13,090 bases of DNA, taken from the NCBI GenBank assembly GCA_000403035.1, contig AQSL01000144.1:7853-20942 (forward strand), in the 5' to 3' direction. The DNA comes from Candidatus Latescibacter anaerobius SCGC AAA252-E07. GTDB lineage: Bacteria; Latescibacterota; Latescibacteria; Latescibacterales; Latescibacteraceae. How positions within the stretch are numbered: position 1 is the first letter of the stretch; each line of letters starts with the position of its first letter. The position numbers were made by a program, and so were the translations under genes. Of this stretch, positions 2-13,012 are shown one piece after another. The notes under the pieces are model-generated. The model did no database searches. It was not told where the DNA came from and saw only the letters and a list, made by a program, of their open reading frames with translations.

Positions 2-700
2 TTTGTATCCCGAGTTTTGAAGATGGAAGAAGATCTGGTAAAGCGTTGGGTTGACAATCGCTTGACAGTAGCTTGTAAGTATGGATTTACCTTAATATAT
101 GATGAGTTTACACGCTCAAGACCAGAGGCAAATAACATCCTCCTTTCTATATTACAGGAGAAGATGATGGATTTGCCAGTAGGACGCGGTGGTGAGGAGC
201 CATATTTAAGGGTCGATCCGGATTTCACCGCTATCTTTACCTCTAACCCTGAGGAATATGCTGGAGTCCACAGGTCTCAAGATGCTTTAAGAGACAGAAT
301 GATTACTATGGATTTGGACCACTTTGACTATGAAACTGAAGTGGCGATCACCCAGGCAAAATCCAAACTCTCTAAACCACATGCAGAAACGATAGTCGAT
401 ATCGTAAGGGGCTTGAGAGAATCTGGAAAGTGCGAATTTGCACCAACAGTTCGTGGTTGTATTATGATTGCAAAAACCCTTAAGGTTCAAAATATTACCC
501 CTTCTAAAGACGGAGCTTTTATGCAGATGTGCCAGGACATCTTAGCTTCAGAAACAAGCAGGGTTGGTTCTAAGACGAATCAAGCCAGGGTAAAAGAAGT
601 AGTTAAGGGGCTTGTCGAGAAAGAACTCGGCATAAGAAAGGCCACTGATGTTGGAAAGAAGACGGTGAAAGAGAGCGTTGTTGCTAGTACGGCCAAGTAG
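2..700 (+). CDS. gvpN: Gas vesicle AAA+ ATPase GvpN (CbbQ/NirQ/NorQ/GvpN family), 5'-truncated by the window edge (C-terminal ~230 aa)
   Basis: The frame is open from base 2 with no upstream stop, so the gene continues 5' of the window. The translation LVKRWVDNRLTVACKYGFTLIYDEFTRSRPEANNILLSILQE...YLRVDPDFTAIFTSNPEEYAGVHRSQDALRDRM matches the GvpN sensor region downstream of Walker B (LIYDEF). The Walker A motif would lie upstream of the window. Confidence 0.85.
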   Translation, partial: FVSRVLKMEEDLVKRWVDNRLTVACKYGFTLIYDEFTRSRPEANNILLSILQEKMMDLPVGRGGEEPYLRVDPDFTAIFTSNPEEYAGVHRSQDALRDRMITMDLDHFDYETEVAITQAKSKLSKPHAETIVDIVRGLRESGKCEFAPTVRGCIMIAKTLKVQNITPSKDGAFMQMCQDILASETSRVGSKTNQARVKEVVKGLVEKELGIRKATDVGKKTVKESVVASTAK

Positions 701-786: not shown

Positions 787-957
787 ATGACGTTGATGCG
801 AGCATTTTCTAAGGTGGATAAAGATGGGAAGATAAAATTTCCTGGCAATATCCAGCGAGCAGCAGACTTAAAAGAAGGCCAGTTGATTGAGCTGAAGATT
901 GTAGGAGCAAGTAGAAAGAAGAATATTTTAGTTTCGGCTAAAGGTAGTGCAAGATAA
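787..957 (+). CDS. Small AbrB/SpoVT/MazE-type swapped-hairpin DNA-binding protein (56 aa), absent from the ORF track
   Basis: ATG at 787 follows a strong SD (GGAGGTGA) 6 nt upstream. The translation is MTLMRAFSKVDKDGKIKFPGNIQRAADLKEGQLIELKIVGASRKKNILVSAKGSAR. The core vDKdGrIxiPxxiRxxlxlkeGdxlElxi is the AbrB/SpoVT looped-hinge-helix fold signature. Confidence 0.6.
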   Translation: MTLMRAFSKVDKDGKIKFPGNIQRAADLKEGQLIELKIVGASRKKNILVSAKGSAR

Positions 958-1039: not shown

Positions 1040-1351
1040 ATGAGAGGCGTGTCAGAAATTAGCGGTTTGCGGAGTATAAGAAGTATGGACGGTACTGGCA
1101 AAAGGTCTATCCCTCGCGTGCAAAGCTCTGCTTACCTCGATCTATATATACTACATAAAGAAAAAGATAGATTAGAGAAAGAAATCTATATTTTAGATAA
1201 AAGGAAAAAGGATATTCAGAAGAAGCTCGATGATGTCAATGAACAAATTGATAAATTGCAGAAAGCAGAAGCTGGAAGAAAAGAGAGGACTATAAAAGAG
1301 TTTAAAAAACCTTCAGAAAAAGACTGGAAGACTATGCCTCTAAAATATTAA
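1040..1351 (+). CDS. Hypothetical coiled-coil protein (103 aa), lysine/glutamate-rich
   Basis: ORF with GGAG 7 nt upstream of the ATG. The translation has heptad-like K/E-rich stretches (EKDRLEKEIYILDKRKKDIQKKLDDVNEQIDKLQKAE). No family was recognised. An alternative start is possible at M16 (nt 1085). Confidence 0.5.
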   Translation: MRGVSEISGLRSIRSMDGTGKRSIPRVQSSAYLDLYILHKEKDRLEKEIYILDKRKKDIQKKLDDVNEQIDKLQKAEAGRKERTIKEFKKPSEKDWKTMPLKY

Positions 1352-1381: not shown

Positions 1382-1762
1382 ATGGATTGGAAAACAATCG
1401 ACTTCAAGAGTCAAAAGCCGGGCAAAAAGGGCGAGGTTTTGAATAACCAAATATATAGATGTGGCTTCTGTGGTGCGAAGGGATTTATGCCTTCCAGGAA
1501 GAGCACAAGGTGCCCTGTTTGTTTAGGTGTCGGGACTGTAAAGGCTCAACCTCCAGTTGTAATCTGTGCTTACTGTAATGGTTCAGGAAAATCTCATTTA
1601 AATACTGATCTTACCTGTATTGTCTGTGGTGGAAAAGGGATTGTAGGTGTACATACTAAGCAAGTCGAGATATGCCCTACATGCAAAGGTAGAGGTAGAG
1701 AAAAAGGTGGGAATCTTCCCTGTTTAATGTGCAGAGGAAAAGGAGTTATCTATAAGAAGTAA
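1382..1762 (+). CDS. Standalone DnaJ-type zinc-finger protein with six CxxCxGxG repeats (126 aa)
   Basis: Six evenly spaced motifs are present: CGFCGAKG, CPVCLGVG, CAYCNGSG, CIVCGGKG, CPTCKGRG and CLMCRGKG. This is the DnaJ central Cys-rich repeat type (DnaJ has four). The protein has no J-domain of its own. Confidence 0.8.
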   Translation: MDWKTIDFKSQKPGKKGEVLNNQIYRCGFCGAKGFMPSRKSTRCPVCLGVGTVKAQPPVVICAYCNGSGKSHLNTDLTCIVCGGKGIVGVHTKQVEICPTCKGRGREKGGNLPCLMCRGKGVIYKK

Positions 1763-1794
1763 TTATACCTTAAAAAGGCTATAGGAGGTAAGGT

Positions 1795-2328
1795 ATGGCA
1801 AAGGGAAAAAAGAAAAAGGAAGAAGATTTGGACATTGATTTTGGAATAGGAAAATTAAGTCTGGGGGGTTTATTTAAAGGTATTGAGAAATTAGTCGACC
1901 TAGCAGCAGATTTAGAAGAAGCAGGTGGCGAAATCAAAAAAGAAGGTGAAATAGACCTGAGCCATCTTAAAGAAGGCATGAAAGGTGTGTTTGGCTTCTC
2001 TATAAAGACGATGGCGGGGGAAAAGACAATTGTTGAGCCTTTCGGTAATATTAAGAAGACTCCTAAAGGACCCAAGGTTGAAGAGGAAAGAGAACCTATG
2101 GTTGATATTTTTGATGAAAAGGAAGAGGTTGTGATTATAGCAGAAATGCCAGGGATTAACGAAGAAGACATCTCGATGGATTTTAAAGGAGATATATTAG
2201 AGGTAAAAGCGGTGTATAAGGATAGAAAATACTATAAAGAAGTTTTGTTACCGGCAAAGGTGAAATCAGAGACCCTGACCTCAACTTATAAAAATGGTAT
2301 ATTAGAAGTAAGAATAAGGAAATGCTAA
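1795..2328 (+). CDS. Hsp20/alpha-crystallin-domain small heat-shock protein (GvpH-like), 177 aa
   Basis: Strong SD (AGGAGGT) precedes the ATG. The C-terminal half (PMVDIFDEKEEVVIIAEMPGINEEDISMDFKGDILEVKA...YKEVLLPAKVKSETLTSTYKNGILEVRIRK) is an alpha-crystallin domain with the characteristic terminal I/V-x-I/V-like motif. The N-terminus is charged and disordered. Confidence 0.8.
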   Translation: MAKGKKKKEEDLDIDFGIGKLSLGGLFKGIEKLVDLAADLEEAGGEIKKEGEIDLSHLKEGMKGVFGFSIKTMAGEKTIVEPFGNIKKTPKGPKVEEEREPMVDIFDEKEEVVIIAEMPGINEEDISMDFKGDILEVKAVYKDRKYYKEVLLPAKVKSETLTSTYKNGILEVRIRKC

Positions 2329-3264
2329 GTGGCATTAATTGGATTAAAAGAAGGTGCCTTAAAGTTAATTCTTTTGGGGGGAAAGGGTGGTGTAGGAAAG
2401 ACGACCTGTTCCTCAAGCACAGGTCTTTACTTAGCTAAAGATTTTAAGACGCTTCTTATCTCGACAGATCCAGCACATTCTTTATCTGATAGTTTAGGCC
2501 AGAAAGTTGGAGATGAGATAGTAGGAGTAAAGGGTGTAGAGAACCTAAGTGCTCTTGAAGTAAGCGCGGAAAAGGCTTTTTCTAAATTTAAGGTTGAATA
2601 TGAAGACCAGATAAAGAAAATCTTGGATACTTCTACGTATTTAGGCCAGGAAGACATTGATTCCATTTTCGCCTTGCCTATCCCGGGAATGGATGAGGTA
2701 ATGGGGTTTAAGACTATAGTTGATCTTATTGAAGAGGCAAGGTTTGATAAATATATTGTTGATACTGCACCCACTGGGCATGCGTTGAGACTTCTGACTT
2801 TACCAGACCTCTTGGATGACTGGATTAAAGTGATGGCAAAGATGAGATGGAAATATAGGTATATGGTTGAAACTTTTGCTGGAAAATATAAACCTGATGA
2901 AGGCGATGATTTTCTATTAAGTATGAAAAAGACGGTAAAGAGAATAGAAGGCCTTCTTAAGGATCAAAGCAGGTGCGAATTTATAGCAGTTACCATTCCA
3001 GAAGATATGGCAATTTTGGAAACGGAGAGGCTGATAAATAATCTGAATAACTATGGAATAAAGGTAAGGCAATTAGTTATAAATAATGTCATGGAATCGA
3101 GGGATTGCGGATTTTGTCAAGAACGAAGAAAAGAGCAAGAAAAATATATAAACCAAATAAAAAGAAAATTTAGCAATTTAAAAACAACAATTATAGCTTT
3201 ACAACCTCGAGAGGTTAAAGGTATAGACGCGTTAAATAATTTTAAGGAGTTGCTATTTCAGTAA
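2329..3264 (+). CDS. ArsA/Get3-family P-loop ATPase (anion-transporting ATPase-like), 311 aa
   Basis: The deviant Walker [11 protein letters not shown], the A-loop/switch [11 protein letters not shown] and switch [14 protein letters not shown] are all hallmarks of the ArsA/Get3 family. A C-terminal CGFC pair is also present. The GTG start at 2329 directly abuts the TAA stop of the Hsp20 gene, suggesting translational coupling. Confidence 0.85.
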
Positions 3265-5429
3265 TGATGAAAAAAAACACAAACCTTACTTTAAAGGTAA
3301 AAGAGGCCTTACCAAAAGATGTGGGAAGGGCAATCGCCAGGATTGACCCAGAGGATATGAAGGCCTTTTGTTTAGAGGTAGGTGATATCATCGAGATTGA
3401 AGGAAAAAGAAAAACACCAGCAAAAATAATGCCCTGTTATACTGAAGAAAGGGGTAAAAAGATTATACAGATAGACGGTATATCGAGAGAAAACGCTCAA
3501 ATAGGGCTGGATGAAAAAGTGGAGATTCATAAAATTAACCATAAACCTGCTAGTAAAATTACTCTCACACCTTTAACCGTATCAACTCTCTTACAAAGAG
3601 ATACAGATGCTAAGTATATCAGTTCGCTTATAGAGGGATTGCCTATAATCCGTGGTGATAGGGTTAGAGCTACGCTATTCGGCTCAAAGTCCTGCGATTT
3701 TAAGGTAGTAGATACCATACCCGAAGGTGTGGTATTGGTAAACCCAACTACTTTGATAAGGATGGAGACGAAAGGGGCTGGAGAAGGCAGACCGGCCAAG
3801 ATTTCATATGAAGATATCGGTGGACTTACTCCCAAAATTCAGAGGATTAGAGAGATGATAGAACTTCCACTGAGATATCCTCAGGTTTTTGAAAGATTGG
3901 GGATTGATGCGCCGAAGGGAGTTTTTCTCTATGGCCCACCGGGCACAGGAAAGACCTTAATCGCTCGTGCAGTAGCTAATGAAACAGACGCCTATTTTAC
4001 TCACATATCAGGTCCTGAGATTATGGGCAAGTTCTACGGTGAAAGTGAAGCACGTCTGCGAAGTGTATTTGAAGATGCTAAAAACCATACTCCTGCCATA
4101 ATTTTTATCGATGAAATAGATGCTATCGCGCCAAAGAGAGAAGAGATGGGTGGAGAAAAGCAGGTTGAACGCAGGGTAGTAGCTCAGCTTTTAGCCCTGA
4201 TGGATGGTTTGGAATCTCGAGGGCAGGTTATTGTTATTGGAGCTACCAATATCCCCAATACAGTTGACCCTGCTCTTCGTAGACCTGGTCGGTTTGATAG
4301 AGAGATACCCATCCCTATCCCTGATAAAAACGGAAGATTTGAGATACTTCAGATTCACACAAGGGGTATGCCTTTAGCAGAAGATGTCAGTGTAGAGAAG
4401 TTGGCTGGGATCACCCATGGATTTGTGGGTGCGGATTTGGAGGCATTAGCCAGAGAAGCGGCAATGAGCGCGTTGAGAAAGATTTTACCTAAAATCACCT
4501 TTGAATTGGCAGATATTCCTTATGAGAGTTTGATGAAGTTAGAAGTAACCATGGATAATTTTTTAGAGGCCATGAAAGAGGTTGAGCCATCGGCCATAAG
4601 AGAAGTATTTGTGGAAGTGCCGGATGTAAAGTGGGAAGATGTAGGAGGTTTAGAAAATATAAAAGAAGAGTTAAAAGAAGCTATAGAGTGGCCATTGAAA
4701 TATTCTGATACCTTTAAAAAGGCAAATACTAATCCTCCCAAAGGGATCCTACTTTATGGAATACCTGGAACAGGAAAGACACTTTTGGCCAAGGCAGTGG
4801 CTAATGAAAGCGGAGTTAATTTTTTATCCATTAAAGGGCCACAACTTATCAGCCGCTATGTTGGAGAGTCAGAGCGAGGGGTAAGAGAGATATTTAAGAA
4901 GGCAAAACAGGTAGCGCCAACAATACTTTTTATTGATGAGATAGATAGCCTTGTGCCCAGACGTGGTTCAGGTTCTACCGATTCTCATGTTACAGAAAGG
5001 GTAATAAGTCAATTTCTAACTGAGATGGATGGGATTGAAGAGCTTAAGGGAGTCGTTGTTTTAGCCGCTACTAACAGGTTAGATATAGTTGATCCTGCCA
5101 TTTTACGGAGTGGTAGATTTGACCTCTTACTTGAGTTGCCTGTGCCAGATGAAAAAACCAGGGAAGAGATATTTAAGATACATACTAAGGATAAACCCCT
5201 TTCTAAAGACGTGGATTTGAAGAGTTTAGCCAAAGAGACCGAAGATAAAGTAGGTTCTGATATTGAATTTATCTGTCGTAAGGCCTCAATGCTGGCGATA
5301 AGAAAATTTATAGAAAATCCGAGAAATAAAGATGAACTCATTATTATTAAGAAGAAGCATTTCGAAGAGGCTATTAAGATAGTAAACGAACAGAAAAAAA
5401 TGGGGGGAGAAGATGGCAAAGATTATTGA
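3264..5429 (+). CDS. Cdc48/p97/VAT-like double-ring AAA+ ATPase with N-terminal double-psi-barrel domain (721 aa)
   Basis: The N-domain [38 protein letters not shown] resembles VAT-N/Cdc48-N. The D1 domain has [17 protein letters not shown] and a second-region-of-homology arginine motif RRPGRFDRE. The D2 domain has GIPGTGKT and ILFIDEIDS. The ATG at 3264 overlaps the TAA stop of the ArsA-like gene (TAATG). Confidence 0.9.
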
Positions 5430-5565
5430 AAAAATTAAAAATCTCTTTAGTGGCAAGGTTGTCTTTAAATCAAAGTGTGGAGCAAAGAAAGAAGAGGCAA
5501 AACCAAAACAAGAAACCTCTTCCCAAGAAAAATCCGAAGAGAAAAAACAACAACCCTCAACATAA
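5413..5565 (+). CDS. Possible small lysine-rich ORF (50 aa) overlapping the 3' end of the Cdc48-like gene
   Basis: The ATG at 5413 is preceded by a G-rich SD-like run (GGGGGGAG). The translation is [50 protein letters not shown]. The region is low-complexity and A-rich, so this could be a chance ORF. Confidence 0.25.
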
Positions 5566-5618
5566 AAAAGTTAAGGGTTTCCATTTAGATGTTTGGACCT
5601 TAAAACAAGAGGTGCGAT

Positions 5619-5885
5619 ATGGGATTTGTAGAATTTGAATACCTATTAGTAATCAGTTTAGTAGTTTCATTGGTATTAGCATATTTGCCGAAGGTAAAGA
5701 TTACACTCCCGGGAGGGATTACGACAAATATTATCGTTAGCTATATTGGAGCAAGGCTTGGTGCAGTTGTGTTTGGGAATTGGCTATTTTTAACCTTTCA
5801 GGGTATTAGTATTTTGCCAGCAATATTGGGAGCGATAGTCGCGATTCTCTTAGGCAAGGCCTGTGTAGAGTGCTCTAAGAAGTAA
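5619..5885 (+). CDS. Small integral membrane protein (88 aa), resembling the GlsB/YeaQ/YmgE (transglycosylase-associated) stress membrane-protein family
   Basis: A GAGGTG SD lies 4-5 nt upstream of the ATG. The protein has hydrophobic helices with Gly-zipper-like motifs (IGARLGAVVFG, ILPAILGAIVAILLG) and a C-terminal CVEC pair. It is a paralog of the 12707-13012 product. Confidence 0.65.
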   Translation: MGFVEFEYLLVISLVVSLVLAYLPKVKITLPGGITTNIIVSYIGARLGAVVFGNWLFLTFQGISILPAILGAIVAILLGKACVECSKK

Positions 5886-5917
5886 AACCAGATTAATTTT
5901 TTTTCTTGTATGACATT

Positions 5918-5953
5918 GCCTGAGGGAGAGGCGGTCTAGCCTTACCCTCAGGC
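5918..5953 (+). promoter_or_regulatory. Structured stem-loop in the 5' leader of the gvpF-J gene: 9-bp stem GCCTGAGGG/CCCTCAGGC with a nested AGGC/GCCT helix
   Basis: A perfect 9-bp inverted repeat separated by 18 nt contains a 4-bp inner palindrome. It is preceded by a T8 run and immediately followed by GAGGAG (SD) and the GTG start at 5967. It is not followed by a T-tract, so it is not a canonical intrinsic terminator. Confidence 0.5.
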
Positions 5954-5966
5954 GAAGAGGAGCATT

Positions 5967-6992
5967 GTGGCTGAAACAGAAAAATATATTTACGGAATTA
6001 TAAATTCTAATGAAGCATTATACTTTGGTTCTTTTGGAACAACTGCATGTGAGGAGGTTTATACTATTCCTTATCAAGATATTTCAGTAGTAGTAAGTAA
6101 CTCTGAAATGGTTGATTACACCATTTTACCCAAGGATGCAGTAGTCAGACATCTGTTTAAGCATCAGCAGGTAATCGAAAAAGTTATGGAGGGCTTTACA
6201 GTAATCCCCATGCGATTAGGAACATTTGCATATGATGAAGATGAAGTAAGATATATTTTGGCCAAAGCCTACCTAATGGTTAAGGACATATTTAATAAGA
6301 TATCTGATAAAATCGAGATTGATGTTGTTGCCACTTGGGGTGATTTTGATTCCGTCCTTAAAGTGATTGGAGAAGAAAAGGAGATTAAGGGATTCAGAGA
6401 AAGTCTTTTAACCAATCCTAAAGAGATAACCGTAGACAACCAGATGAAAGTGGGAGCTATGGTCAAAAACCACTTATATAAAAAAAGAGAAAAATATACT
6501 CTAGAAATACAAACATCCCTAAGCAAAATTATCCAAGGAATCAAAGTTCATGAGCTTATGAATGATGAGATGGTCTTAAATACTGCCTTTTTAATAAATA
6601 AAACTAAACAGAAAGAATTTGATAAAAAAATAGAAAAACTAAATACAAAATTTAATAACGAGTTGAACTTTAGATGTGTTGGTCCGCTACCTCCTTATAG
6701 CTTTTACACACTCGAGATCAAGAAGTGGCAATTTGAAGAGATAGATTGGGCAAGAAGAAAACTTGGGCTCCAAAACAACTTTGCAACTAAAGATGAAATA
6801 AAAAAAGCCCATCAGACAATGGCGTTTACTTTTCACCCTGACAAAAATCCCAATACTTCTGGCATAGAGAGAGAATTCGATGAGATAACAAAGGCTTATA
6901 AATTGTTGTGTGAATATTGCGAGGGAGATAGTTGTTCTTTTAGTGAGGAAGAATTCAAAAAGAACGCAATATTAGTCAAGGTAAGAGATTGA
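5967..6992 (+). CDS. gvpF: GvpF/GvpL-family gas vesicle protein fused to a C-terminal DnaJ J-domain (341 aa)
   Basis: The N-terminal ~250 aa carry GvpF/L motifs: KYIYGII, VxxHxxVIEKVMEGFTVIPMRLGTF, NTAFLINK and RCVGPLPPYSFY. Residues ~258-315 (WARRKLGLQNNFATKDEIKKAHQTMAFTFHPDKNPNTSGIEREFDEITKAYKLL) form a canonical J-domain with the HPD motif at nt 6834-6842. The tail CEYCEGDSCS is Cys-rich. GTG start with a GAGGAG SD. Confidence 0.85.
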   Translation: MAETEKYIYGIINSNEALYFGSFGTTACEEVYTIPYQDISVVVSNSEMVDYTILPKDAVVRHLFKHQQVIEKVMEGFTVIPMRLGTFAYDEDEVRYILAKAYLMVKDIFNKISDKIEIDVVATWGDFDSVLKVIGEEKEIKGFRESLLTNPKEITVDNQMKVGAMVKNHLYKKREKYTLEIQTSLSKIIQGIKVHELMNDEMVLNTAFLINKTKQKEFDKKIEKLNTKFNNELNFRCVGPLPPYSFYTLEIKKWQFEEIDWARRKLGLQNNFATKDEIKKAHQTMAFTFHPDKNPNTSGIEREFDEITKAYKLLCEYCEGDSCSFSEEEFKKNAILVKVRD

Positions 6993-6993
6993 T

Positions 6994-7764
6994 ATGGAAA
7001 AAGAAGGAAAATATATCTATTGTATTATCGCGACATCACAAGAGAGAAATTTTGGTCCTATTGGAATAGGTGAAAGAGGCGACGATGTCCTAACCATCGG
7101 CTATAATGACCTAAGCATGGTTATGAGCAATCATCCTATAGTTAAATTTGTTGTTAATCGAGAAAACATGTTAGCTCATGAGAAAGTAATTGAGGAAGTG
7201 ATGAAGGAATTTGATGGTGTGCTTCCGGTCAGGTTTGGCACGATTGCATCCAGTGCCGATGAGATAAGGAATCTTTTGGACAGAAGATATAGAGAATTTA
7301 AGACGCTGTTACGAGATATGGACCACAAGGTAGAATTAGGTGTTAAAGGCATATGGAAGGATATGGATGTAATCTTTAAAAAAATTGTAGAAGAAAATAA
7401 AGGGATCAAGAAAACAAAAGAGAATATTCAGAACGATAAAGGTAAGAAAAATATTCAAGCCAAAATGGAGATTGGCAAGATGGTCGAGCATGCCTTAGCA
7501 ATAAAGAAGGAAAAAGAGGCGGAAAGTATAGTAAATACCCTTAAAAGAGCAGCTTTTGATTATAAACTCAATAGAACCGCTGGTGATGAGATGTTTATGA
7601 ATGCTGCTTTTTTGGTTGATAAAGGTAGAGAAAAAGAGTTTGATAATATAATGGTTGACTTAAGTAACAAATACAAAGATAGAATAAAGTTTATGTATGT
7701 AGGGCCTTTACCTGTATTTAACTTTGTCAATATTGTCATTTATCCTGAAGAGTGGGAGAAATAA
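6994..7764 (+). CDS. gvpF: GvpF/GvpL-family gas vesicle protein, paralog 2 (256 aa)
   Basis: Carries the motifs EGKYIYCII, NMLAHEKVIEEVMKEFDGVLPVRFGTI, NAAFLVDK and FMYVGPLPVFNF. It starts 1 nt after the stop of the preceding gvpF-J gene. Confidence 0.85.
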   Translation: MEKEGKYIYCIIATSQERNFGPIGIGERGDDVLTIGYNDLSMVMSNHPIVKFVVNRENMLAHEKVIEEVMKEFDGVLPVRFGTIASSADEIRNLLDRRYREFKTLLRDMDHKVELGVKGIWKDMDVIFKKIVEENKGIKKTKENIQNDKGKKNIQAKMEIGKMVEHALAIKKEKEAESIVNTLKRAAFDYKLNRTAGDEMFMNAAFLVDKGREKEFDNIMVDLSNKYKDRIKFMYVGPLPVFNFVNIVIYPEEWEK

Positions 7765-8065
7765 TGGGTCTATCAGGGACAGAGGCAGAGATTATAAATT
7801 GTGTTGCTAAGTTAAGACAGGCGACCAAAGACCAAATAAGAAGAGAGAGGTGGGTTTTTCGTTAGATTATATCGGTTTTTTATGCCGATATTTAGTCAGA
7901 AAAGGTTTCCTGAATTTCTCTGGCGGCTATTATTCTTTGGCAAAGGCAGGGATAAAGATACACCTAGAAGAAGAGCCAGAGATTGATAGAGCGTTACTTA
8001 AGGAAGTTGCTGGCGAGGTTAGCTCAACAGATCGGCAGAGAATTAAAAAAACAATAAAAGGTTAG
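7764..8065 (+). pseudogene. Winged-helix (MarR/ArsR/PadR-like) small transcriptional regulator split by a -1 frameshift in a purine-rich tract (~7840-7855)
   Basis: Frame A (7764-7865) reads MGLSGTEAEIINCVAKLRQATKDQIRRERWVFR*, which is helix 1-2 of an HTH. Frame B (from 7850) reads VGFSLDYIGFLCRYLVRKGFLNFSGGYYSLAKAG..., which is the recognition helix plus wing. Both frames read RRE across aagaagagagaggtggg, so one indel in this run would restore a ~100-aa wHTH protein. The ATG overlaps the gvpF2 stop (TAATG). Confidence 0.55.
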
Positions 8066-8102
8066 ACTTGTCCCAATTAGAGTATTTTCGATAGTGTGAT
8101 AT

Positions 8103-8172
8103 TGGGTTGCTCTGGCAAAAGGGTATATTGATAATACAGTAATAAAAAAACTTTAGCCGGATGAGCAACCCA
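8103..8172. promoter_or_regulatory. 10-bp perfect inverted repeat (TGGGTTGCTC ... GAGCAACCCA) with a 50-nt spacer, in the 192-nt intergenic gap upstream of gvpF3
   Basis: The arms lie at 8103-8112 and 8163-8172. The intervening AT-rich DNA contains TATATT (8124-8129) and TTGATA motifs. This is the largest non-coding gap inside the cluster and is a likely internal promoter/operator region. Confidence 0.4.
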
Positions 8173-8257
8173 TGAGTAAGTTTAGCAGTATTTTCAGTCA
8201 ATTACTGATGATTCCCTTAAGTAAGTTTCTTATTTACGGGATGAAGGCAAGAAATAG

Positions 8258-9025
8258 ATGGAAGTAGCTTTAAAAGAAGGTAAATATATATACTGTATTA
8301 TTGAATCAAATAAGCCTCGTTCTTTTGGTCCTTTAGGTATTGGTGGAAGGGCTGATGAGTTGTATACAGTCTGCTTCAATGGTCTTGCCGCTTGTGTGAG
8401 CAACTCTCCCATAATAAAGTATTCTTGTTTAAGGGATAATATGCTTGCCCATGAAATGGCAATTGAGGAGGTAATGAAGGAATATACAGTCTTGCCAGTT
8501 CGATTTAATACGATTGCTGATGATGAAGAAAAGGTAAAGAAGATATTAGAAATAGATCACGATAGGTTTATAGATGCATTGAAAAATATGGAAGGTAAGA
8601 AAGAACTGGGGCTTAAAGCCATATTTAAAGAAGAAATTATTTATAAAGATATATTAGAAAGGTATGAAGATATAAGGATATTAAAAGAAAAAATAGCTCT
8701 ACTTTCACCCGAAAGAACATATTACCAACGTATGGAAATAGGAAGAATGGTGGAAGCATCTGTACAAAATGAAAGAGAGATCTGCAAAAAGGAGATATTG
8801 GATTCTTTAATACCTTTGGCAGAAGACAATAAAATCAATAATACCTATGGTGAGTTAATGATTTTAAGCGCCGCCTTTTTAGTCAACAGAGACAAAGAAG
8901 TAGAGTTTGACCGGAAGGTTGAGGAATTCAATACAAAATATGGTGATAAAATAAAATTTAAGTATGTGGGAACAATACCGCCATTTAATTTTGTAAATCT
9001 TGTCATTGAAACAGGAAAATATTAG
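8258..9025 (+). CDS. gvpF: GvpF/GvpL-family gas vesicle protein, paralog 3 (255 aa)
   Basis: Carries the motifs EGKYIYCII, NMLAHEMAIEEVMKEYTVLPVRFNTI, SAAFLVNR and FKYVGTIPPFNF. Confidence 0.85.
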   Translation: MEVALKEGKYIYCIIESNKPRSFGPLGIGGRADELYTVCFNGLAACVSNSPIIKYSCLRDNMLAHEMAIEEVMKEYTVLPVRFNTIADDEEKVKKILEIDHDRFIDALKNMEGKKELGLKAIFKEEIIYKDILERYEDIRILKEKIALLSPERTYYQRMEIGRMVEASVQNEREICKKEILDSLIPLAEDNKINNTYGELMILSAAFLVNRDKEVEFDRKVEEFNTKYGDKIKFKYVGTIPPFNFVNLVIETGKY

Positions 9026-9027
9026 AT

Positions 9028-9264
9028 ATGTTTTTAATCGATGACATATTACTTGCGCCTTTAAAGGGCGTGATTTGGATTGGGGAAAGGCTTAACGAGA
9101 TAGCAGAAAAGGAATTCTCCGATGAGGGGCGTATAAAAGAGAAACTTATGGAATTGCAACTGAAATTCGAAATGGATGAAATAAGTGAAGAAGAGTATAA
9201 TAGGCAGGAGAAAGAACTTTTAGAGCGCTTAAATGCAATTAGGAAAGCAAAGGAGGAGGTGTAA
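9028..9264 (+). CDS. gvpG: Gas vesicle protein GvpG (78 aa)
   Basis: MFLIDDILLAPLKGVIWIGERLNEIAEKE...LMELQLKFEMDEISEEEYNRQEKELLERLNAI matches the GvpG pattern: an N-terminal PxxGxxWIxE motif and LQxxFxxGEISEEE. Confidence 0.8.
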   Translation: MFLIDDILLAPLKGVIWIGERLNEIAEKEFSDEGRIKEKLMELQLKFEMDEISEEEYNRQEKELLERLNAIRKAKEEV

Positions 9265-9265
9265 A

Positions 9266-9532
9266 ATGGCTAATATTGAAGAGGCAAGAAAAGCAGTGGC
9301 AGAATTTTTAAGGAAAACTCTCAATGTTAAAGATGTAAAGGTAATTAAGACGGCAAAGGCTGGTGATGGCTGGGAAACTGAGGCTGAAGTATATGAAGAA
9401 AGCTCGTTCATAAAGTCACTCGGTCTTCCCACAAGAGTCCAGGATAGGAATATTTATGCGGTCAAACTAAATAGCAGTTTAGAAGTTGATTCCTATGAGC
9501 GCAAGGGTACAGAAGAGCAAGAGGAAAGATAA
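9266..9532 (+). CDS. gvpO: GvpO-like gas vesicle protein, paralog 1 (88 aa)
   Basis: ATG at 9266 follows an excellent SD (GGAGGAGGTG). The preferred start is downstream of the track's 9233 start, which overlaps gvpG. The architecture AVAEFLRKTL...DGWETEAEVYE...YAVKLNSSLEVDSYERK parallels GvpO (..DGW..V.V.E...Y.V..d..G.l.gY.R..). It is a paralog of the 11490-11744 product. Confidence 0.6.
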   Translation: MANIEEARKAVAEFLRKTLNVKDVKVIKTAKAGDGWETEAEVYEESSFIKSLGLPTRVQDRNIYAVKLNSSLEVDSYERKGTEEQEER

Positions 9533-9534
9533 AA

Positions 9535-10344
9535 ATGGAGGGATTATATCTTTATTGCATAAGAGAAAAAATAGAAGATGCTCCTGGAATTTCTGTAAAA
9601 GGAATTGATGGAAAGGGAGAGGTTTTTATCCTTGTTCATGGCCAGTTAGAAGCAGTGGTAAGCAAGGTTTCCTTAAAAGAATTCAGTTCTGAAGAGATTC
9701 AGAAAAAAGCCCAGGAAGACTTAAACTGGATTAAAGAAAAAGCCCTTCTCCATCAAAAGGTTATAGAAGAAGCAATGAAAAAGAACGATAAGCTCTTAGA
9801 TCTAATTCCTATGAGGTTTGGGATCATCTTTAAAGAGGAAACAAAATTAAAACAGACTCTATATAAAGATTATACCAAGATTAAAGAAACATTAGAGAGA
9901 ATTCGGGGAAAACAGGAATGGAGCCTAAAGGTGTATTTAAAAGACAAAGAAAAATTTGAAGAAGTGGTAAAAGAAAAGAATCCACTAATAAAGGAAAAGG
10001 AAAAAGAGATAACAAATTTACCTGAGGGTATGGCCTTTTTTATGGAAGAGGAGTTAAAAGAGGTTATCTTTAAAGAAGTAGATAAAGATTTAAACGATTT
10101 TGTAGAGGTTGTTTTTGAGGATTTTAAAAAGCAAGCCATGGATTCCGTTAAAAATAAGATTTTGGAAAAAGAATTAACCGGAAAACCTGAGCATATGATT
10201 TTAAACGCTGCCTATTTAATCCCTGAGGAAAAGGTTGAGAATTTTAAAAAAGAGGCTGAAATTCTCAATCAAAAGATACAAGAAAAAGGGATTTACCTTG
10301 AGTATAGCGGTCCTTGGCCACTTTATAATTTTACATCTTATTAA
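9535..10344 (+). CDS. gvpL: GvpL/GvpF-family gas vesicle protein, paralog 4 (269 aa, more divergent and GvpL-like)
   Basis: Carries the motifs LYLYCI, AVVSKV, LLHQKVIEEAMKKNDKLLDLIPMRFGII, NAAYLIPEEK and YSGPWPLYNF. The middle is K/E-rich. Confidence 0.8.
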   Translation: MEGLYLYCIREKIEDAPGISVKGIDGKGEVFILVHGQLEAVVSKVSLKEFSSEEIQKKAQEDLNWIKEKALLHQKVIEEAMKKNDKLLDLIPMRFGIIFKEETKLKQTLYKDYTKIKETLERIRGKQEWSLKVYLKDKEKFEEVVKEKNPLIKEKEKEITNLPEGMAFFMEEELKEVIFKEVDKDLNDFVEVVFEDFKKQAMDSVKNKILEKELTGKPEHMILNAAYLIPEEKVENFKKEAEILNQKIQEKGIYLEYSGPWPLYNFTSY

Positions 10345-10348
10345 ACTT

Positions 10349-10882
10349 ATGATTAAAAAAACTGATAATGTAACATTAGTAGATGCCTTAGATAAGGTTT
10401 TAGAGAAAGGCGCAGTTATCACTGGGGATATAGTGATAAGGGTAGCTGATGTGGATCTTGTCTTTTTAGGCTTACGGCTTATCCTTACATCAATTTCCAA
10501 GGCCGAAGAACTGTCTGGCAAGAGTTTCAGTGATCCAGATAAAGAGTTTACCCCTGAAGATATAGAATATATACAGAAATTACAAAGGGAGATAAGAAGA
10601 GCCGAAGAAAATATTCCTAAACTTATTGATCTAGGCAATCCTAAAAAGACAGAACAAGGTTTAGCTAAATTAATTTTAACCCTTGTTGAACTTATAAGAA
10701 GACTTATGGAGAAAGAAGCCTATAGGAGAGTAAAGAGAGGAAAGTTATCCAATATAGAAATTCAAAAATTGGGATTAAGCCTTAAGGCTGTTCAAAAAAA
10801 GATAAAAGAAGTTCAGACAATCTTTGGTATTGAGGATGAAGAGCTAAATTTAGACTTAGGTCCTTTAGGAAATTTAATGTAG
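10349..10882 (+). CDS. gvpK: Fusion of a GvpA/GvpJ-like N-terminal domain with a GvpK C-terminal domain (177 aa)
   Basis: The N-terminus MIKKTDNVTLVDALDKVLEKGAVITGDIVIRVADVDLVFLGLRLILTSISKAEEL is a GvpA-family core. The C-terminus GLAKLILTLVELIRRLMEKEAYRRVKRGKLSNIEIQKLGLSL...EDEELNLDLGPLGNLM matches the GvpK signature (LxLTxVELLRxLxERQAxRR...LGPLG). The ATG is 4 nt after the gvpL stop. The track's upstream extension (10235) overlaps gvpL and is rejected. Confidence 0.7.
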   Translation: MIKKTDNVTLVDALDKVLEKGAVITGDIVIRVADVDLVFLGLRLILTSISKAEELSGKSFSDPDKEFTPEDIEYIQKLQREIRRAEENIPKLIDLGNPKKTEQGLAKLILTLVELIRRLMEKEAYRRVKRGKLSNIEIQKLGLSLKAVQKKIKEVQTIFGIEDEELNLDLGPLGNLM

Positions 10883-10892
10883 GAGAAAAAAG

Positions 10893-11156
10893 ATGCATAA
10901 AGAAGGAGCTAAAATAAATTGTGTAACATTTCAAAAGCAAGAAAAGGTAATAAAGGATATTACTGATAAGATTAATATGGCTAAGGGAGTGCGAGAGAAA
11001 GCGATATTTGCCGAAGAATTACAGAAAGAAGTAGATATGCTTTTAACTTGTCCGGATTATGATGATAAAAAATTAGACTGTAAGAATTGTCGTTTCATTG
11101 CAAATTTGCGTAAGAAAACCTCATGTTTAATTATAAAAGCTAAAAAGTTAGTATAA
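10893..11156 (+). CDS. Hypothetical small Cys-containing protein (87 aa)
   Basis: An AGGAG SD lies 7 nt upstream. Cysteines sit at positions 10, 53, 62, 65 and 77 (CPDYDDKKLDCKNCRF...C). No family was recognised. It is tightly packed between gvpK and the gvpJ-like gene. Confidence 0.5.
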   Translation: MHKEGAKINCVTFQKQEKVIKDITDKINMAKGVREKAIFAEELQKEVDMLLTCPDYDDKKLDCKNCRFIANLRKKTSCLIIKAKKLV

Positions 11157-11173
11157 GAAAGTCGGAGATAATC

Positions 11174-11479
11174 ATGTCAGAACAAAAAATGATGCACGCC
11201 ACAAATGCTACTAATCTTGCTGATATCTTAGAGCGGGTATTAGACAAGGGAATTGTAATTGCCGGAGATATCCAGATTAAAATTGCCGATGTTGAACTTT
11301 TAACGATAAAGATAAGGTTATTGGTTGCCTCTGTGGATAAGGCAATGGAGATGGGTATAAACTGGTGGCAAACTGATAGTTTTCTTTCCTCAAAAGCAAA
11401 AGAGGCTGAGATAGAAAATGAAAACACAGAGCTGAAAAAGAGATTAGGAAAATTAGAGGAGAAGATTAAAAGTGCATAA
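11174..11479 (+). CDS. gvpJ: GvpA-family minor gas vesicle protein (GvpJ/GvpM-like), 101 aa
   Basis: LADILERVLDKGIVIAGDIQIKIADVELLTIKIRLLVASVDKAMEMG is the GvpA/J/M core. It has a coiled-coil C-terminal tail. GGAG SD lies 6 nt upstream. Confidence 0.85.
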   Translation: MSEQKMMHATNATNLADILERVLDKGIVIAGDIQIKIADVELLTIKIRLLVASVDKAMEMGINWWQTDSFLSSKAKEAEIENENTELKKRLGKLEEKIKSA

Positions 11480-11489
11480 GGAGCAGAAA

Positions 11490-11744
11490 ATGGAAATTAA
11501 AGATATTGTGGAAATTGCTAAGGCGGGGTTGGTTCAACTTACCGGATTTAGTTCTCCCACTGCGATAGGAATAAACAAAGAAGCGGATATATGGCACATT
11601 ACTGTAGAAATAATAGAAAAACCTTCGGAAGCAGTTAATCTGGAGCTTCTTGGAATTTATGATGTCCGAATAGATGCTTCTGGAAATCTTCTTGGTTATG
11701 AGAAAATAAGGATGAGGAAGCGTGGTGATGTTCAAAAAGGGTAA
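11490..11744 (+). CDS. gvpO: GvpO-like gas vesicle protein, paralog 2 (84 aa)
   Basis: AAGGAG lies 6 nt upstream of the ATG at 11490. The C-terminus VNLELLGIYDVRIDASGNLLGYEKIRMRKRGDVQKG closely matches the GvpO C-terminal motif (L.asY.V..D..G.L.gY.RvRRYERG). Confidence 0.65.
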   Translation: MEIKDIVEIAKAGLVQLTGFSSPTAIGINKEADIWHITVEIIEKPSEAVNLELLGIYDVRIDASGNLLGYEKIRMRKRGDVQKG

Positions 11745-12569: not shown

Positions 12570-12706
12570 ATATGTTTGCCAATTGAAGTATATTTCCACA
12601 CATTAACCGGGGAGATACTACCGAGTACAGGGAACATCACGAGCCGCCCGTTTCCGAAATAATTCCTTGAATCCCGGAGAACTCATAACTGAAGGGGGTG
12701 AAAGGT

Positions 12707-13012
12707 ATGATTTATGTGGGGTTTTTACCGTTTTTGTATCTGTTAATCATCGGGATAGTAGTTTCTTTGATACTGTTTTTTGTGCCGAAGATCACGGTTA
12801 AACTTCCCGGAGGGTATCCCGTCAATTTAATTGCTGGCTATGTCGGTGCCTGGGTAGGAACGCCTGTATTTGGCAAATGGGAGTTTTTGACCCGCGGTGA
12901 GATAAGTATTATCCCTGCTATACTGGGTGCTATCGCGGCGATTCTCTTGGCTAATTCCTGTGCAGAATGCTGTAGGAAATATGGAGAAAAACAGACAGGA
13001 CAACAAGGATAA
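12707..13012 (+). CDS. Small integral membrane protein (101 aa), second GlsB/YeaQ/YmgE-like paralog
   Basis: The ATG at 12707 is 6 nt after AGGGGGTGA. The track's GTG at 12698 is less likely. The product aligns with the 5619-5885 product (VPKITVKLPGGYPVNLIAGYVGAWVGTPVFGKWEFLT...IIPAILGAIAAILLANSCAEC versus LPKVKITLPGGITTNIIVSYIGARLGAVVFGNWLFLT...ILPAILGAIVAILLGKACVEC). Confidence 0.7.
   Translation: MIYVGFLPFLYLLIIGIVVSLILFFVPKITVKLPGGYPVNLIAGYVGAWVGTPVFGKWEFLTRGEISIIPAILGAIAAILLANSCAECCRKYGEKQTGQQG

Follow-up and report, generated by a model that had tools for sequence, protein, structure and literature searches.

A gas-vesicle (gvp) gene cluster of Candidatus Latescibacter anaerobius SCGC AAA252-E07 (contig AQSL01000144.1, positions 7,853 to 20,942) raises the question of what a set of chaperone- and unfoldase-type genes is doing between gvpN and the gvpF/L genes. 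The set encodes a stand-alone DnaJ-type zinc-finger protein, a small heat-shock protein (sHsp) of the Hsp20 family, a Get3/ArsA-family ATPase (ArsA below) and a Cdc48/VAT-type double-ring AAA+ ATPase, and is followed by a GvpF protein fused to a J-domain (GvpF::J). The 13,090-nucleotide stretch analysed, referred to throughout as the window, comprises most of a gas-vesicle operon of a widespread type with a putative built-in protein-quality-control module. Domains were assigned by Pfam and NCBIfam profile searches of the products of the window open reading frames (ORFs), and these searches support the ArsA/Get3, Cdc48, Hsp20, zinc-finger, J-domain and gvp assignments of the first-pass annotation of this DNA. 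Coordinates are collected in Table 1, and related loci are cited by L numbers.

Species-representative genomes (GTDB, one per species) were scanned with the window Cdc48 as query, and the best 80 of 517 relatives, at 64–86% identity, were kept. The 80 loci were annotated by searching six-frame ORFs with the window proteins, and a locus was called gvp-linked when at least two gvp families were found on its flanks. The survey began from the Cdc48 side, so that the counts describe Cdc48-bearing loci and not the share of all gvp clusters. By this definition gvp genes flank Cdc48 in 64 of the 80 loci; nine of the other 16 are short contigs (2.9–5.7 kb) and the remaining seven are without gvp genes. 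Hsp20 lies immediately upstream of Cdc48, or of an ArsA–Cdc48 pair, in 50 of the 56 gvp-linked loci with enough flank, ArsA adjoins Cdc48 in 24 gvp-linked loci (about two-fifths), and in most gvp-linked loci whose upstream sequence is long enough a GvpN match precedes Cdc48. The block Hsp20-(ArsA)-Cdc48-GvpF::J between gvpN and gvpF/G/L/J/K is accordingly a recurrent arrangement, and the objection anticipated in the first-pass annotation, that these genes merely happen to lie beside gvp genes in one genome, fails; a housekeeping block placed there by chance is rejected by the linkage counts.

More than 120 relatives of the window Cdc48 are on record in databases at 80–98% identity, the few named ones coming from metagenome-assembled genomes (MAGs) of Nitrospirota, Omnitrophica and Bacteroidota. 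Three of these relatives share the order gvpA, two to four unknown genes, gvpN, an AbrB-like gene, a gene for a protein of about 100 aa, (zinc finger), Hsp20, ArsA, Cdc48, GvpF::J, GvpF, GvpF, GvpG, GvpO-like, GvpL, GvpJ, GvpK, an unknown gene and a GvpA-family gene, and the Omnitrophica Cdc48 (P0103/P0124), recorded for an 848-kb contig, has the same neighbours in the same order on an ENA contig of 552 kb (L005). The host labels of the MAGs span more than 20 lineages, including Bacteroidota, Ignavibacteria, Chlorobiaceae, Nitrospirota, Nitrospinota, Planctomycetota, Omnitrophota, Cloacimonadota, Acidobacteriota, Elusimicrobia, Victivallales, Desulfobacterota/Syntrophia, Atribacterota, Clostridia, Actinomycetota, Dehalococcoidia, Marinimicrobia and Acetothermia. 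Since one of the Cdc48 loci lies on a 5.5-Mb chromosome (L036) and another on a 3.4-Mb contig (L085), binning artefacts cannot explain every placement. Ranked by similarity of Cdc48, the loci appear with their phylum labels intermingled.

Conservation within the cluster is strongest in Cdc48, GvpN and ArsA, with a median identity to the window of about 71.5% (71.5% for Cdc48 and 71.7% for GvpN). Pairwise identities of Cdc48 correlate with those of ArsA (Spearman rho 0.84), Hsp20 (0.79) and GvpN (0.66; Mantel p = 0.001 for each), and the benchmark pair of core genes, GvpN and GvpF2, gives rho 0.72 (Mantel p = 0.001). Cdc48 thus keeps pace in divergence with ArsA, Hsp20 and GvpN to roughly the degree seen between two core gvp genes. 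These comparisons show that the module is co-inherited with gvp genes across many bacterial lineages, and it is very probably tied to gas vesicles in function.

Within the window every ORF of substantial size is encoded on the + strand, and the packing is tight. The Hsp20 stop codon touches the ArsA start codon (TAA-GTG at 2326-2331, 0 nt), and the Cdc48 ATG overlaps the ArsA stop codon (TAATG at 3262-3266, -1 nt), exactly as first annotated. The same junctions between Hsp20, ArsA and Cdc48 occur in L002, and a near-identical arrangement in L003. From the touching and overlapping codons, co-translation had been concluded; what such junctions suggest is translational coupling instead. Sigma-70-like promoters and terminator-like sites in the window do not rise above the shuffled-sequence level and sigma-54-like sites occur at chance level; no signal for a promoter belonging to the module itself, or internal to it, stands out. 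A near-consensus sigma-54 site is found upstream of gvpA in only 4 of 42 related loci, and no claim is based on it. Several clusters encode, upstream of gvpA, a sigma-54-dependent activator, a PAS histidine kinase and one or more response regulators (L002 417-3661; L005 1-3569; L088 1257-5400; L089 1378-5686), a set which we take to resemble Serratia gvrA/B/C.

The window Cdc48 contains the N-terminal domains PF02359 (91.6 bits) and PF02933 (46 bits) followed by two PF00004 stretches, and it exceeds the TIGR01243 cutoff of 802.65 bits. Its closest solved structure is Thermoplasma VAT (5g4f), which aligns over the full length with 748 bits. The Walker A and B motifs are intact in both D1 and D2 and align to those of VAT, and the pore loops are aromatic in both rings (D1 GKFYGESE against SKYYGQSE in VAT; D2 SRYVGESE against SKWVGESE). 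Judged by these motifs, the protein is predicted to be what an active threading unfoldase should look like. Conservation among the relatives is highest in D1 (median 84%) and lowest in the N-domain (58%). The HbYX tail docks the 20S proteasome in archaeal and eukaryotic members, and is not needed for membership of the Cdc48 family. No HbYX-type tail was found: the window protein ends in ...GKDY, and the C-termini of 73 relatives have a median identity of 17% and no penultimate-Tyr motif. The idea of a proteasome-docking tail was accordingly rejected, and the C-terminus gives no hint of 20S proteasome docking. The protein shares with Thermoplasma VAT and eukaryotic p97-Cdc48 the N-D1-D2 layout, the intact ATPase motifs and the aromatic D1 pore loop (KFYG here, KYYG in VAT), but differs in its bacterial host, in a genomic context devoted to one system and in the lack of a conserved proteasome-docking C-terminus. 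A 1007-aa homologue (P0004) considered as an ArsA–Cdc48 fusion, and hence as Rosetta-stone evidence, proved to be a triple-AAA Cdc48.

The ArsA-family protein displays the deviant Walker A motif GKGGVGKT, switch I DPAHS and switch II DTAPTGH in alignment with Get3, and scores well above the cutoff of 135 bits on TIGR00345 GET3_arsA_TRC40 (276.1 bits). In the PDB it matches Chlamydomonas ARSA1 and archaeal Get3 best (195 bits), with E. coli ArsA at 145 bits. The CxxC at the dimer interface of Get3 binds zinc, and CGFC in the window protein aligns with CDFC of M. jannaschii Get3 (PDB 3ug6). The putative client-binding helical region also aligns to Get3 but is shorter. By these sequence features the protein resembles Get3 more than it does the arsenite pump. 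An arsenic-resistance ArsA was rejected on the grounds that the protein has a single domain of 311 aa in place of two in tandem (about 580 aa), that it scores 135.2 bits on TIGR04291 against a cutoff of 650, and that the window contains no ars genes. In the single-cell genome of a close relative (L095, GCA_000398625.1), ArsA is split into ORFs of 122 and 202 aa (2984-3920), either by a frameshift or by a sequencing error.

The alpha-crystallin domain of the Hsp20 protein spans residues 104-176 (PF00011, 31.3 bits against a cutoff of 20.8). The protein scores 139.7 bits on the archaeal Hsp20 model NF041800 (cutoff 140), matches ArsA_HSP20 weakly (18.8 bits) and is borderline on the GvpH model PF05455 (22.9 bits, cutoff 22). 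The module had been described as reaching beyond the known GvpH homologue; for this component the description does not hold, the Hsp20 being itself GvpH-like, and its counterpart in Methylosinus sp. C49 carries the annotation GvpH, with 28.9 bits on the same model.

The zinc-finger protein has six CxxC repeats, five of them canonical CxxCxGxG and one CxxCGxxG, and its cysteines are predicted to suffice for three Zn(Cys)4 sites. Exactly six CxxC are present in 37 of 44 homologues from gvp loci. It is not a type I DnaJ: the central domain stands by itself, the TIGR02349 score is 38 bits against 377, and the J-domain is carried by a separate protein, GvpF. DnaJ itself has four CxxCxGxG repeats, and proteins consisting only of the DnaJ zinc finger are known, namely the plant BSD2 type and B. 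subtilis anti-TRAP; secondary matches of the window protein are to Anti-TRAP/RtpA. Like these it is small and stand-alone and contains DnaJ-type CxxCxGxG repeats only, but it has six repeats, and a second six-repeat paralogue (about 107 aa) lies just upstream of gvpN in L097 (2402-2725) and in many other loci, so that two DnaJ-type zinc-finger proteins often flank gvpN.

GvpF::J carries the HPD tripeptide (FHPDKNP), and all 120 of its best database homologues contain both Pfam domains (GvpL_GvpF and DnaJ). A GvpF with a J-domain and HPD was found in 48 of 60 loci, the tripeptide being kept in every one of the 48 J-domain-bearing homologues. Plasmid pOA238_160 of Octadecabacter arcticus (L090, 15479-16561) also encodes a GvpL/F::DnaJ fusion (28.0 bits, cutoff 27.8); since the gvp cluster of this cultured bacterium, with gvpN, Hsp20 and GvpF, has neither Cdc48 nor ArsA, the fusion of a J-domain to GvpF is independent of Cdc48.

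Related clusters are present in cultured organisms and on plasmids. In Methylocella tundrae T4 (plasmid p1) and in Methylosinus sp. C49 (pMSC49b) a gvp cluster ends with Hsp20, a hypothetical gene and CDC48, the gene order being sigma-54 regulator, GvpF, kinase, response regulator, gvpA, gvpN, ..., GvpF, GvpG, GvpJ, gas vesicle protein, Hsp20, hypothetical, CDC48; the Hsp20–Cdc48 pair is present there, but genes for ArsA, the J-domain and the zinc finger are absent. Plasmid p4 of Nostoc sphaeroides (L092, 9801-13584) has a gvp cluster of the classical cyanobacterial kind (gvpA, gvpA, gvpC, gvpN, then gvpJ/K/F-type and GvpL/F genes), directly followed by a two-domain ArsA (634 aa) and then by a 613-aa double AAA protein; this last protein is 48% identical to D1-D2 of the window Cdc48 and lacks the N-domain. 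The Cdc48 gene of Halobacterium plasmids is about 27-29 kb from gvpN, outside the gvp cluster. In this small plasmid sample, Cdc48-class AAA proteins belong to three of five bacterial cluster types and to none of the haloarchaeal records examined. Cdc48, ArsA, Hsp20, the J-domain and the zinc finger thus behave like modular accessories of gvp clusters, and the fullest set is that of the window.

Parts of this set have been met before in other combinations. ArsA homologues and hsp20 in gvp operons were reported by Castillo & Saier 2010, who proposed a role in gas-vesicle biogenesis (PMC2963123). In those operons, as here, an ArsA-family ATPase and Hsp20 are found among gvpN/F/L/G/J/K, and the ATPase was inferred to energise a step of biogenesis; their ArsA proteins, from cyanobacteria, Chlorobi/Bacteroidetes, Geobacter and an acidobacterium, are two-domain proteins of about 600 aa (PMC2963123). 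By comparison, the window ArsA has a single domain, is closer to Get3 and is linked to Cdc48 by its gene junction, whereas Cdc48, the J-domain and the zinc finger do not appear in that report. In archaea an sHsp and a Cdc48-type AAA+ protein are co-regulated as a heat-shock unit in the Phr/HSR1 regulons (PMC10653856), and Natrinema has an overlapping Hsp20–Cdc48 gene pair outside any gvp context. The window resembles this pair in that the sHsp gene is immediately upstream, Hsp20 scores near the archaeal cutoff and Cdc48 matches VAT best, but differs in being bacterial, in lying inside a gvp operon, in having a Get3-like ATPase in between and in lacking a conserved HbYX-like tail. Get3d proteins are Get3 proteins with a fused alpha-crystallin domain, in which a Get3-fold ATPase coupled to an sHsp-type domain binds hydrophobic clients (PMC10248533), and the weak ArsA_HSP20 match of the window Hsp20 is in keeping with this likeness; in contrast to Get3d, ArsA and Hsp20 of the window are separate adjacent genes, the Get3-like motifs and CxxC are kept, and the context is that of gas vesicles and not of photosynthetic membranes.

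With the bi-chaperone disaggregation system (sHsp, DnaK with a J-protein, and ClpB) the module has in common an sHsp holdase, a J-domain for Hsp70 and a double-ring AAA+ threading motor, but its motor belongs to the Cdc48/VAT class instead of Hsp100/ClpB, its J-domain is carried by GvpF, a client-binding protein, and the set is encoded in an organelle operon and not in a general stress regulon. The model gvp clusters of Halobacterium, cyanobacteria and Serratia likewise combine the AAA+ protein GvpN with a GvpH-like sHsp, and GvpF/L is regarded as a chaperone of GvpA (PMC9501494, PMC10903477); unlike the window, they have a single MoxR-type AAA+ protein and lack Cdc48, a Get3-like ATPase and a J-domain on GvpF/L. 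A full-text literature search returned no mention of Cdc48, the Get3 label, a GvpF/L J-domain or DnaJ-type zinc fingers in gvp clusters, a result which is suggestive and not proof since subscription journals are thinly covered. Two reviews (PMC9501494, PMC10903477) do not mention Cdc48, Get3, a GvpF/L J-domain or zinc-finger proteins in gvp clusters either. Of the pathway that the first-pass annotation called previously undescribed, the ArsA and hsp20 genes in gvp operons and the sHsp–Cdc48 pair in archaea were therefore already on record, as is the GvpJ-like::GvpK fusion discussed below, and the searched literature suggests that Cdc48, the GvpF::J fusion and the six-repeat zinc-finger proteins are the parts new for gvp clusters.

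As regards function, it is on balance probable, given the encoded domains, that the module is a holdase and unfoldase set that would keep GvpA-family proteins fit for assembly and clear misassembled or collapsed shell. The GvpH-like sHsp and the six-repeat zinc-finger protein or proteins would serve as ATP-independent holdases for the hydrophobic GvpA-family proteins, and the Get3/ArsA ATPase would cover their hydrophobic segments with its helical client-binding domain. GvpF binds monomeric GvpA (PMC9501494), and GvpF::J would bring host DnaK to GvpA so bound. Misassembled, aggregated or collapsed GvpA-family protein would be threaded and unfolded by the Cdc48/VAT-type hexamer at the expense of ATP, and the unfolded protein would either go back to assembly or be removed. 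A need for such functions is consistent with the aggregation of GvpA2 in E. coli, which constitutes a proteotoxic stress and is relieved when assembly factors are expressed first (PMC12848028), and the upkeep of GvpA solubility and the degradation of gas vesicles have both been stated to be open questions (PMC10903477). Most likely the module would have originated when an archaeal-type sHsp–Cdc48 stress pair was taken into a gvp operon just after gvpN/gvpH. A narrower proposal is possible but distinctly tentative, namely that a bacterial Cdc48/VAT clade, spread horizontally with gvp operons through MAGs of more than 20 labelled lineages, is devoted to pulling GvpA out of misassembled or collapsed shells and recycling it, working with a GvpH-type sHsp, a Get3-like carrier and a GvpF-tethered J-domain.

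Several observations weigh against a dedicated quality-control module. Its parts are modular, ArsA being present anywhere in only 28 and zinc-finger proteins in only 30 of the 64 gvp-linked loci, and the J-domain being absent from 12 of 60. The Octadecabacter arcticus gvp cluster combines Hsp20 and GvpL/F::J with neither Cdc48 nor ArsA, and that of Spartinivicinus has none of the Hsp20, Cdc48, ArsA or J-domain extras. So far as is known, Halobacterium, B. megaterium and Serratia form gas vesicles from model clusters devoid of Cdc48, so that the module is not universally required. Close Cdc48 relatives in Synergistales lie in unrelated contexts: five loci (L062, L066, L079, L081, L086), each flanked by about 10 kb in either direction, contain no gvp genes, L082 is a 7-kb Synergistaceae contig, and in L062, the sole Synergistales locus annotated, Cdc48 stands among unrelated genes. 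The Cdc48 enzyme is therefore not intrinsically specific to gas vesicles. Co-divergence could in part reflect a shared organismal history, and, most loci being MAGs, some phylum labels may be binning errors.

Among the alternatives, one that is unlikely but merits consideration is regulated dismantling, in which Cdc48 would pull GvpA from intact or collapsed vesicles, for loss of buoyancy and recycling of the shell, with the sHsp, ArsA and J-domain taking up the subunits and none of them needed for assembly. Cdc48/VAT enzymes are segregases and unfoldases, and collapsed vesicles are aggregate-like and trigger a ClpB/DnaK/J response in the native host. The mechanism of gas-vesicle degradation is moreover one of the questions flagged as open (PMC10903477). 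Against this, the genes lie in the middle of an assembly operon, between gvpN and gvpF, with junctions suggestive of translational coupling and no standout internal promoter; co-expression with assembly genes fits a role at the time of assembly better than an opposing one, and neither a protease nor a proteasome-docking tail is encoded. It is this mid-operon position, together with the holdase-type partners, that favours quality control during assembly plus clearance of failed or collapsed material. Quite improbable, in our view, is a Cdc48 that works in shell growth itself, delivering or inserting GvpA at the seam alongside GvpN or partly in its place. The proximity of Cdc48 to gvpN, their near-equal conservation and the highly conserved D1 ring would agree with such a motor, but GvpN is upstream of Cdc48 in most gvp-linked loci and so is not replaced, many working gas-vesicle systems do without Cdc48, and close relatives of the enzyme operate outside gvp contexts.

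We give little credence to the possibility that a general heat and stress cassette, sHsp–Cdc48(-ArsA), was captured once beside gvp genes and then spread horizontally together with them while having no gas-vesicle-specific function. The archaeal pair does exist without gvp genes, as does a Scalindua locus (L077) in which Hsp20 is about 1.7 kb upstream of Cdc48 with two ORFs between; Cdc48 stands alone in Synergistales and rhizobia, and the Hsp20 scores as an archaeal Hsp20. A neutral passenger would often be lost, however, whereas the position within the operon is kept across more than 20 labelled lineages at 64–86% identity, the block co-diverges with the gvp genes, related though rearranged associations recur in Alphaproteobacteria and cyanobacteria, and a chaperone-type addition is found on a gvp protein itself (GvpF::J). 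The least credible alternative is a Cdc48 that unfolds or removes a regulator, such as the AbrB-like protein or a GvpF paralogue, since, despite the conserved AbrB/MazE-like protein of the cluster and the precedent of haloarchaeal GvpD, an NTP-binding repressor (PMC9501494), with its action on GvpE, the sHsp, Get3-like ATPase, J-domain and zinc-finger partners suit bulk hydrophobic clients and poorly suit a single regulatory target, and no degradation partner is encoded.

The module considered here as a quality-control set is embedded in an otherwise recognisable gvp cluster (Table 1), with gvpN, gvpF/L, gvpG, gvpJ/M-type, gvpK and gvpO genes all in one direction.

Table 1. Features of the gas-vesicle cluster in the window
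Feature	Position	Strand	Basis
gvpN (MoxR-like AAA+), C-terminal 232 residues, truncated by window start	2-700	+	Pfam AAA_5 41.5 bits; tblastn matches to annotated gvpN on plasmids
AbrB/MazE-like 56-aa protein	787-957	+	no direct Pfam match; L005/L006 homologue with PF04014 MazE_antitoxin
103-aa coiled-coil protein, start codon uncertain	1040-1351	+	weak DUF7491 coiled-coil match only
DnaJ-type zinc-finger protein, stand-alone, 126 aa	1382-1762	+	PF00684 DnaJ_CXXCXGXG 40.4 bits
Small heat-shock protein, alpha-crystallin family, GvpH-like	1795-2328	+	PF00011 HSP20 31.3 bits
Single-domain Get3/ArsA/TRC40-family ATPase, 311 aa	2329-3264	+	PF02374 ArsA_ATPase 277 bits; TIGR00345 276.1 bits
Cdc48/VAT-type double-ring AAA+ ATPase, 721 aa	3264-5429	+	CDC48_N, CDC48_2, two AAA; TIGR01243 943.6 bits
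50-aa Lys/Glu-rich ORF, doubtful gene	5413-5565	+	overlaps Cdc48 stop; no family match
Small membrane protein, 88 aa	5619-5885	+	no family match
GvpF/L fused to C-terminal J-domain	5967-6992	+	PF06386 GvpL_GvpF 185.5 bits; PF00226 DnaJ 46.2 bits, cutoff 27.8
GvpF/L paralogue 2	6994-7764	+	PF06386 206.7 bits
GvpF/L paralogue 3	8258-9025	+	PF06386 209.3 bits
GvpG	9028-9264	+	PF05120 81.1 bits
GvpO-like 88-aa protein, sub-threshold	9266-9532	+	PF05800 22 bits, cutoff 25
GvpL/F paralogue 4	9535-10344	+	PF06386 188 bits
GvpJ-like (GvpA-family)::GvpK fusion, 194 aa	10298-10882	+	PF00741 48.4 bits and PF05121 95.6 bits, one ORF
Cys-rich 87-aa protein	10893-11156	+	no Pfam/NCBIfam match
GvpA-family minor shell protein (GvpJ/S/M-like)	11174-11479	+	PF00741 63.6 bits
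GvpO	11472-11744	+	PF05800 47.1 bits

The major shell gene gvpA is not in the window. In the close relative L097, whose 56-aa AbrB-like protein is identical to that of the window, a 68-aa Gas_vesicle gene, the probable gvpA, lies about 2.8 kb upstream of gvpN, and such a gene is also upstream of gvpN in L002-L006. GvpN, truncated here, is 326 aa long in the close relatives L095-L097. The gvp gene list of the first-pass annotation stands as regards gvpN, the four gvpF/L paralogues and gvpG, but its gvpJ-like and gvpK genes are one fused ORF, next to which there is a separate GvpA-family gene; of its two gvpO genes the downstream one is sound and the upstream one falls below the Pfam cutoff. The 194-aa GvpJ-like::GvpK gene is also called in L001, L087 and L095, and is represented by two separate genes in L002, L004 and L005; a GvpA-family/GvpK fusion of this kind has been reported for A. 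flos-aquae (PMC10903477). The sub-threshold GvpO-like protein is kept in 29 loci, is called as a gene in L001 (7966-8232) and bears a faint similarity to the downstream GvpO.

The AbrB/MazE-like gene is found directly 3' of gvpN in at least 15 loci (for example L005 7378-7545, and also L088 14774-15094), and the Methylocella gvp cluster also has an AbrB/MazE/SpoVT-type protein; the 56-aa protein is a candidate cluster-specific regulator. The 103-aa coiled-coil protein is kept at the same position in 34 related loci. An exact look-up found no record of the product as translated from the window, and products of 103 aa are called at that position in L095-L098; the start codon or one residue of the window product may differ from the recorded ones. 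The Lys/Glu-rich 50-aa ORF is called as a gene in L001 and L087, phmmer matches to it lie at the same position in L005, L006 and L053, with 52-aa genes called in the first two, and L004 has a 48-aa ORF at the equivalent position. The Cys-rich 87-aa protein occupies the same position in 11 loci.

The 88-aa membrane protein is probably a lineage-specific insertion outside the conserved system: BLASTP against the 80 related loci gave no match covering at least 60% of it, and the stretch from Cdc48 to GvpF::J is free of called genes in L095, a close relative. It is 56% identical to a paralogue at 12698-13012, which is likewise without a family match. The largest gap within the cluster (7765-8257, 493 bp) contains a 71-aa ORF (7850-8065) with homologues in only four loci, and L003 has extra genes at this position, including one for a Volactin-domain protein. 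Past the end of the gvp cluster on the near-identical contig L087 (11495-14076), transposase genes of the IS110 and IS1595 families flank a second single-domain ArsA paralogue (307 aa). An Rfam scan of the window gave no family at threshold.

An operon-encoded chaperone/unfoldase set provides concrete candidate genes for the maintenance of GvpA solubility, its insertion and the disposal of collapsed shells, all of which are counted among the open questions of the field (PMC10903477). As acoustic reporter genes, gas vesicles are held back by the proteotoxicity of GvpA (PMC12848028), and co-expression of the module could improve their heterologous production. Genetic work on Cdc48 is feasible, as related clusters are available in cultured Methylocella tundrae T4 and Methylosinus sp. 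C49, and a variant with ArsA and the N-domain-less double AAA protein in Nostoc sphaeroides. To our knowledge few roles have been established for bacterial Cdc48 homologues, and the linkage to gvp genes gives the bacterial enzyme a defined and testable cellular context. If Cdc48 does extract and recycle GvpA from misassembled or collapsed shells, bacteria would have a first example of a Cdc48 system specific to an organelle, and a mechanism of gas-vesicle turnover or quality control would be known for the first time.

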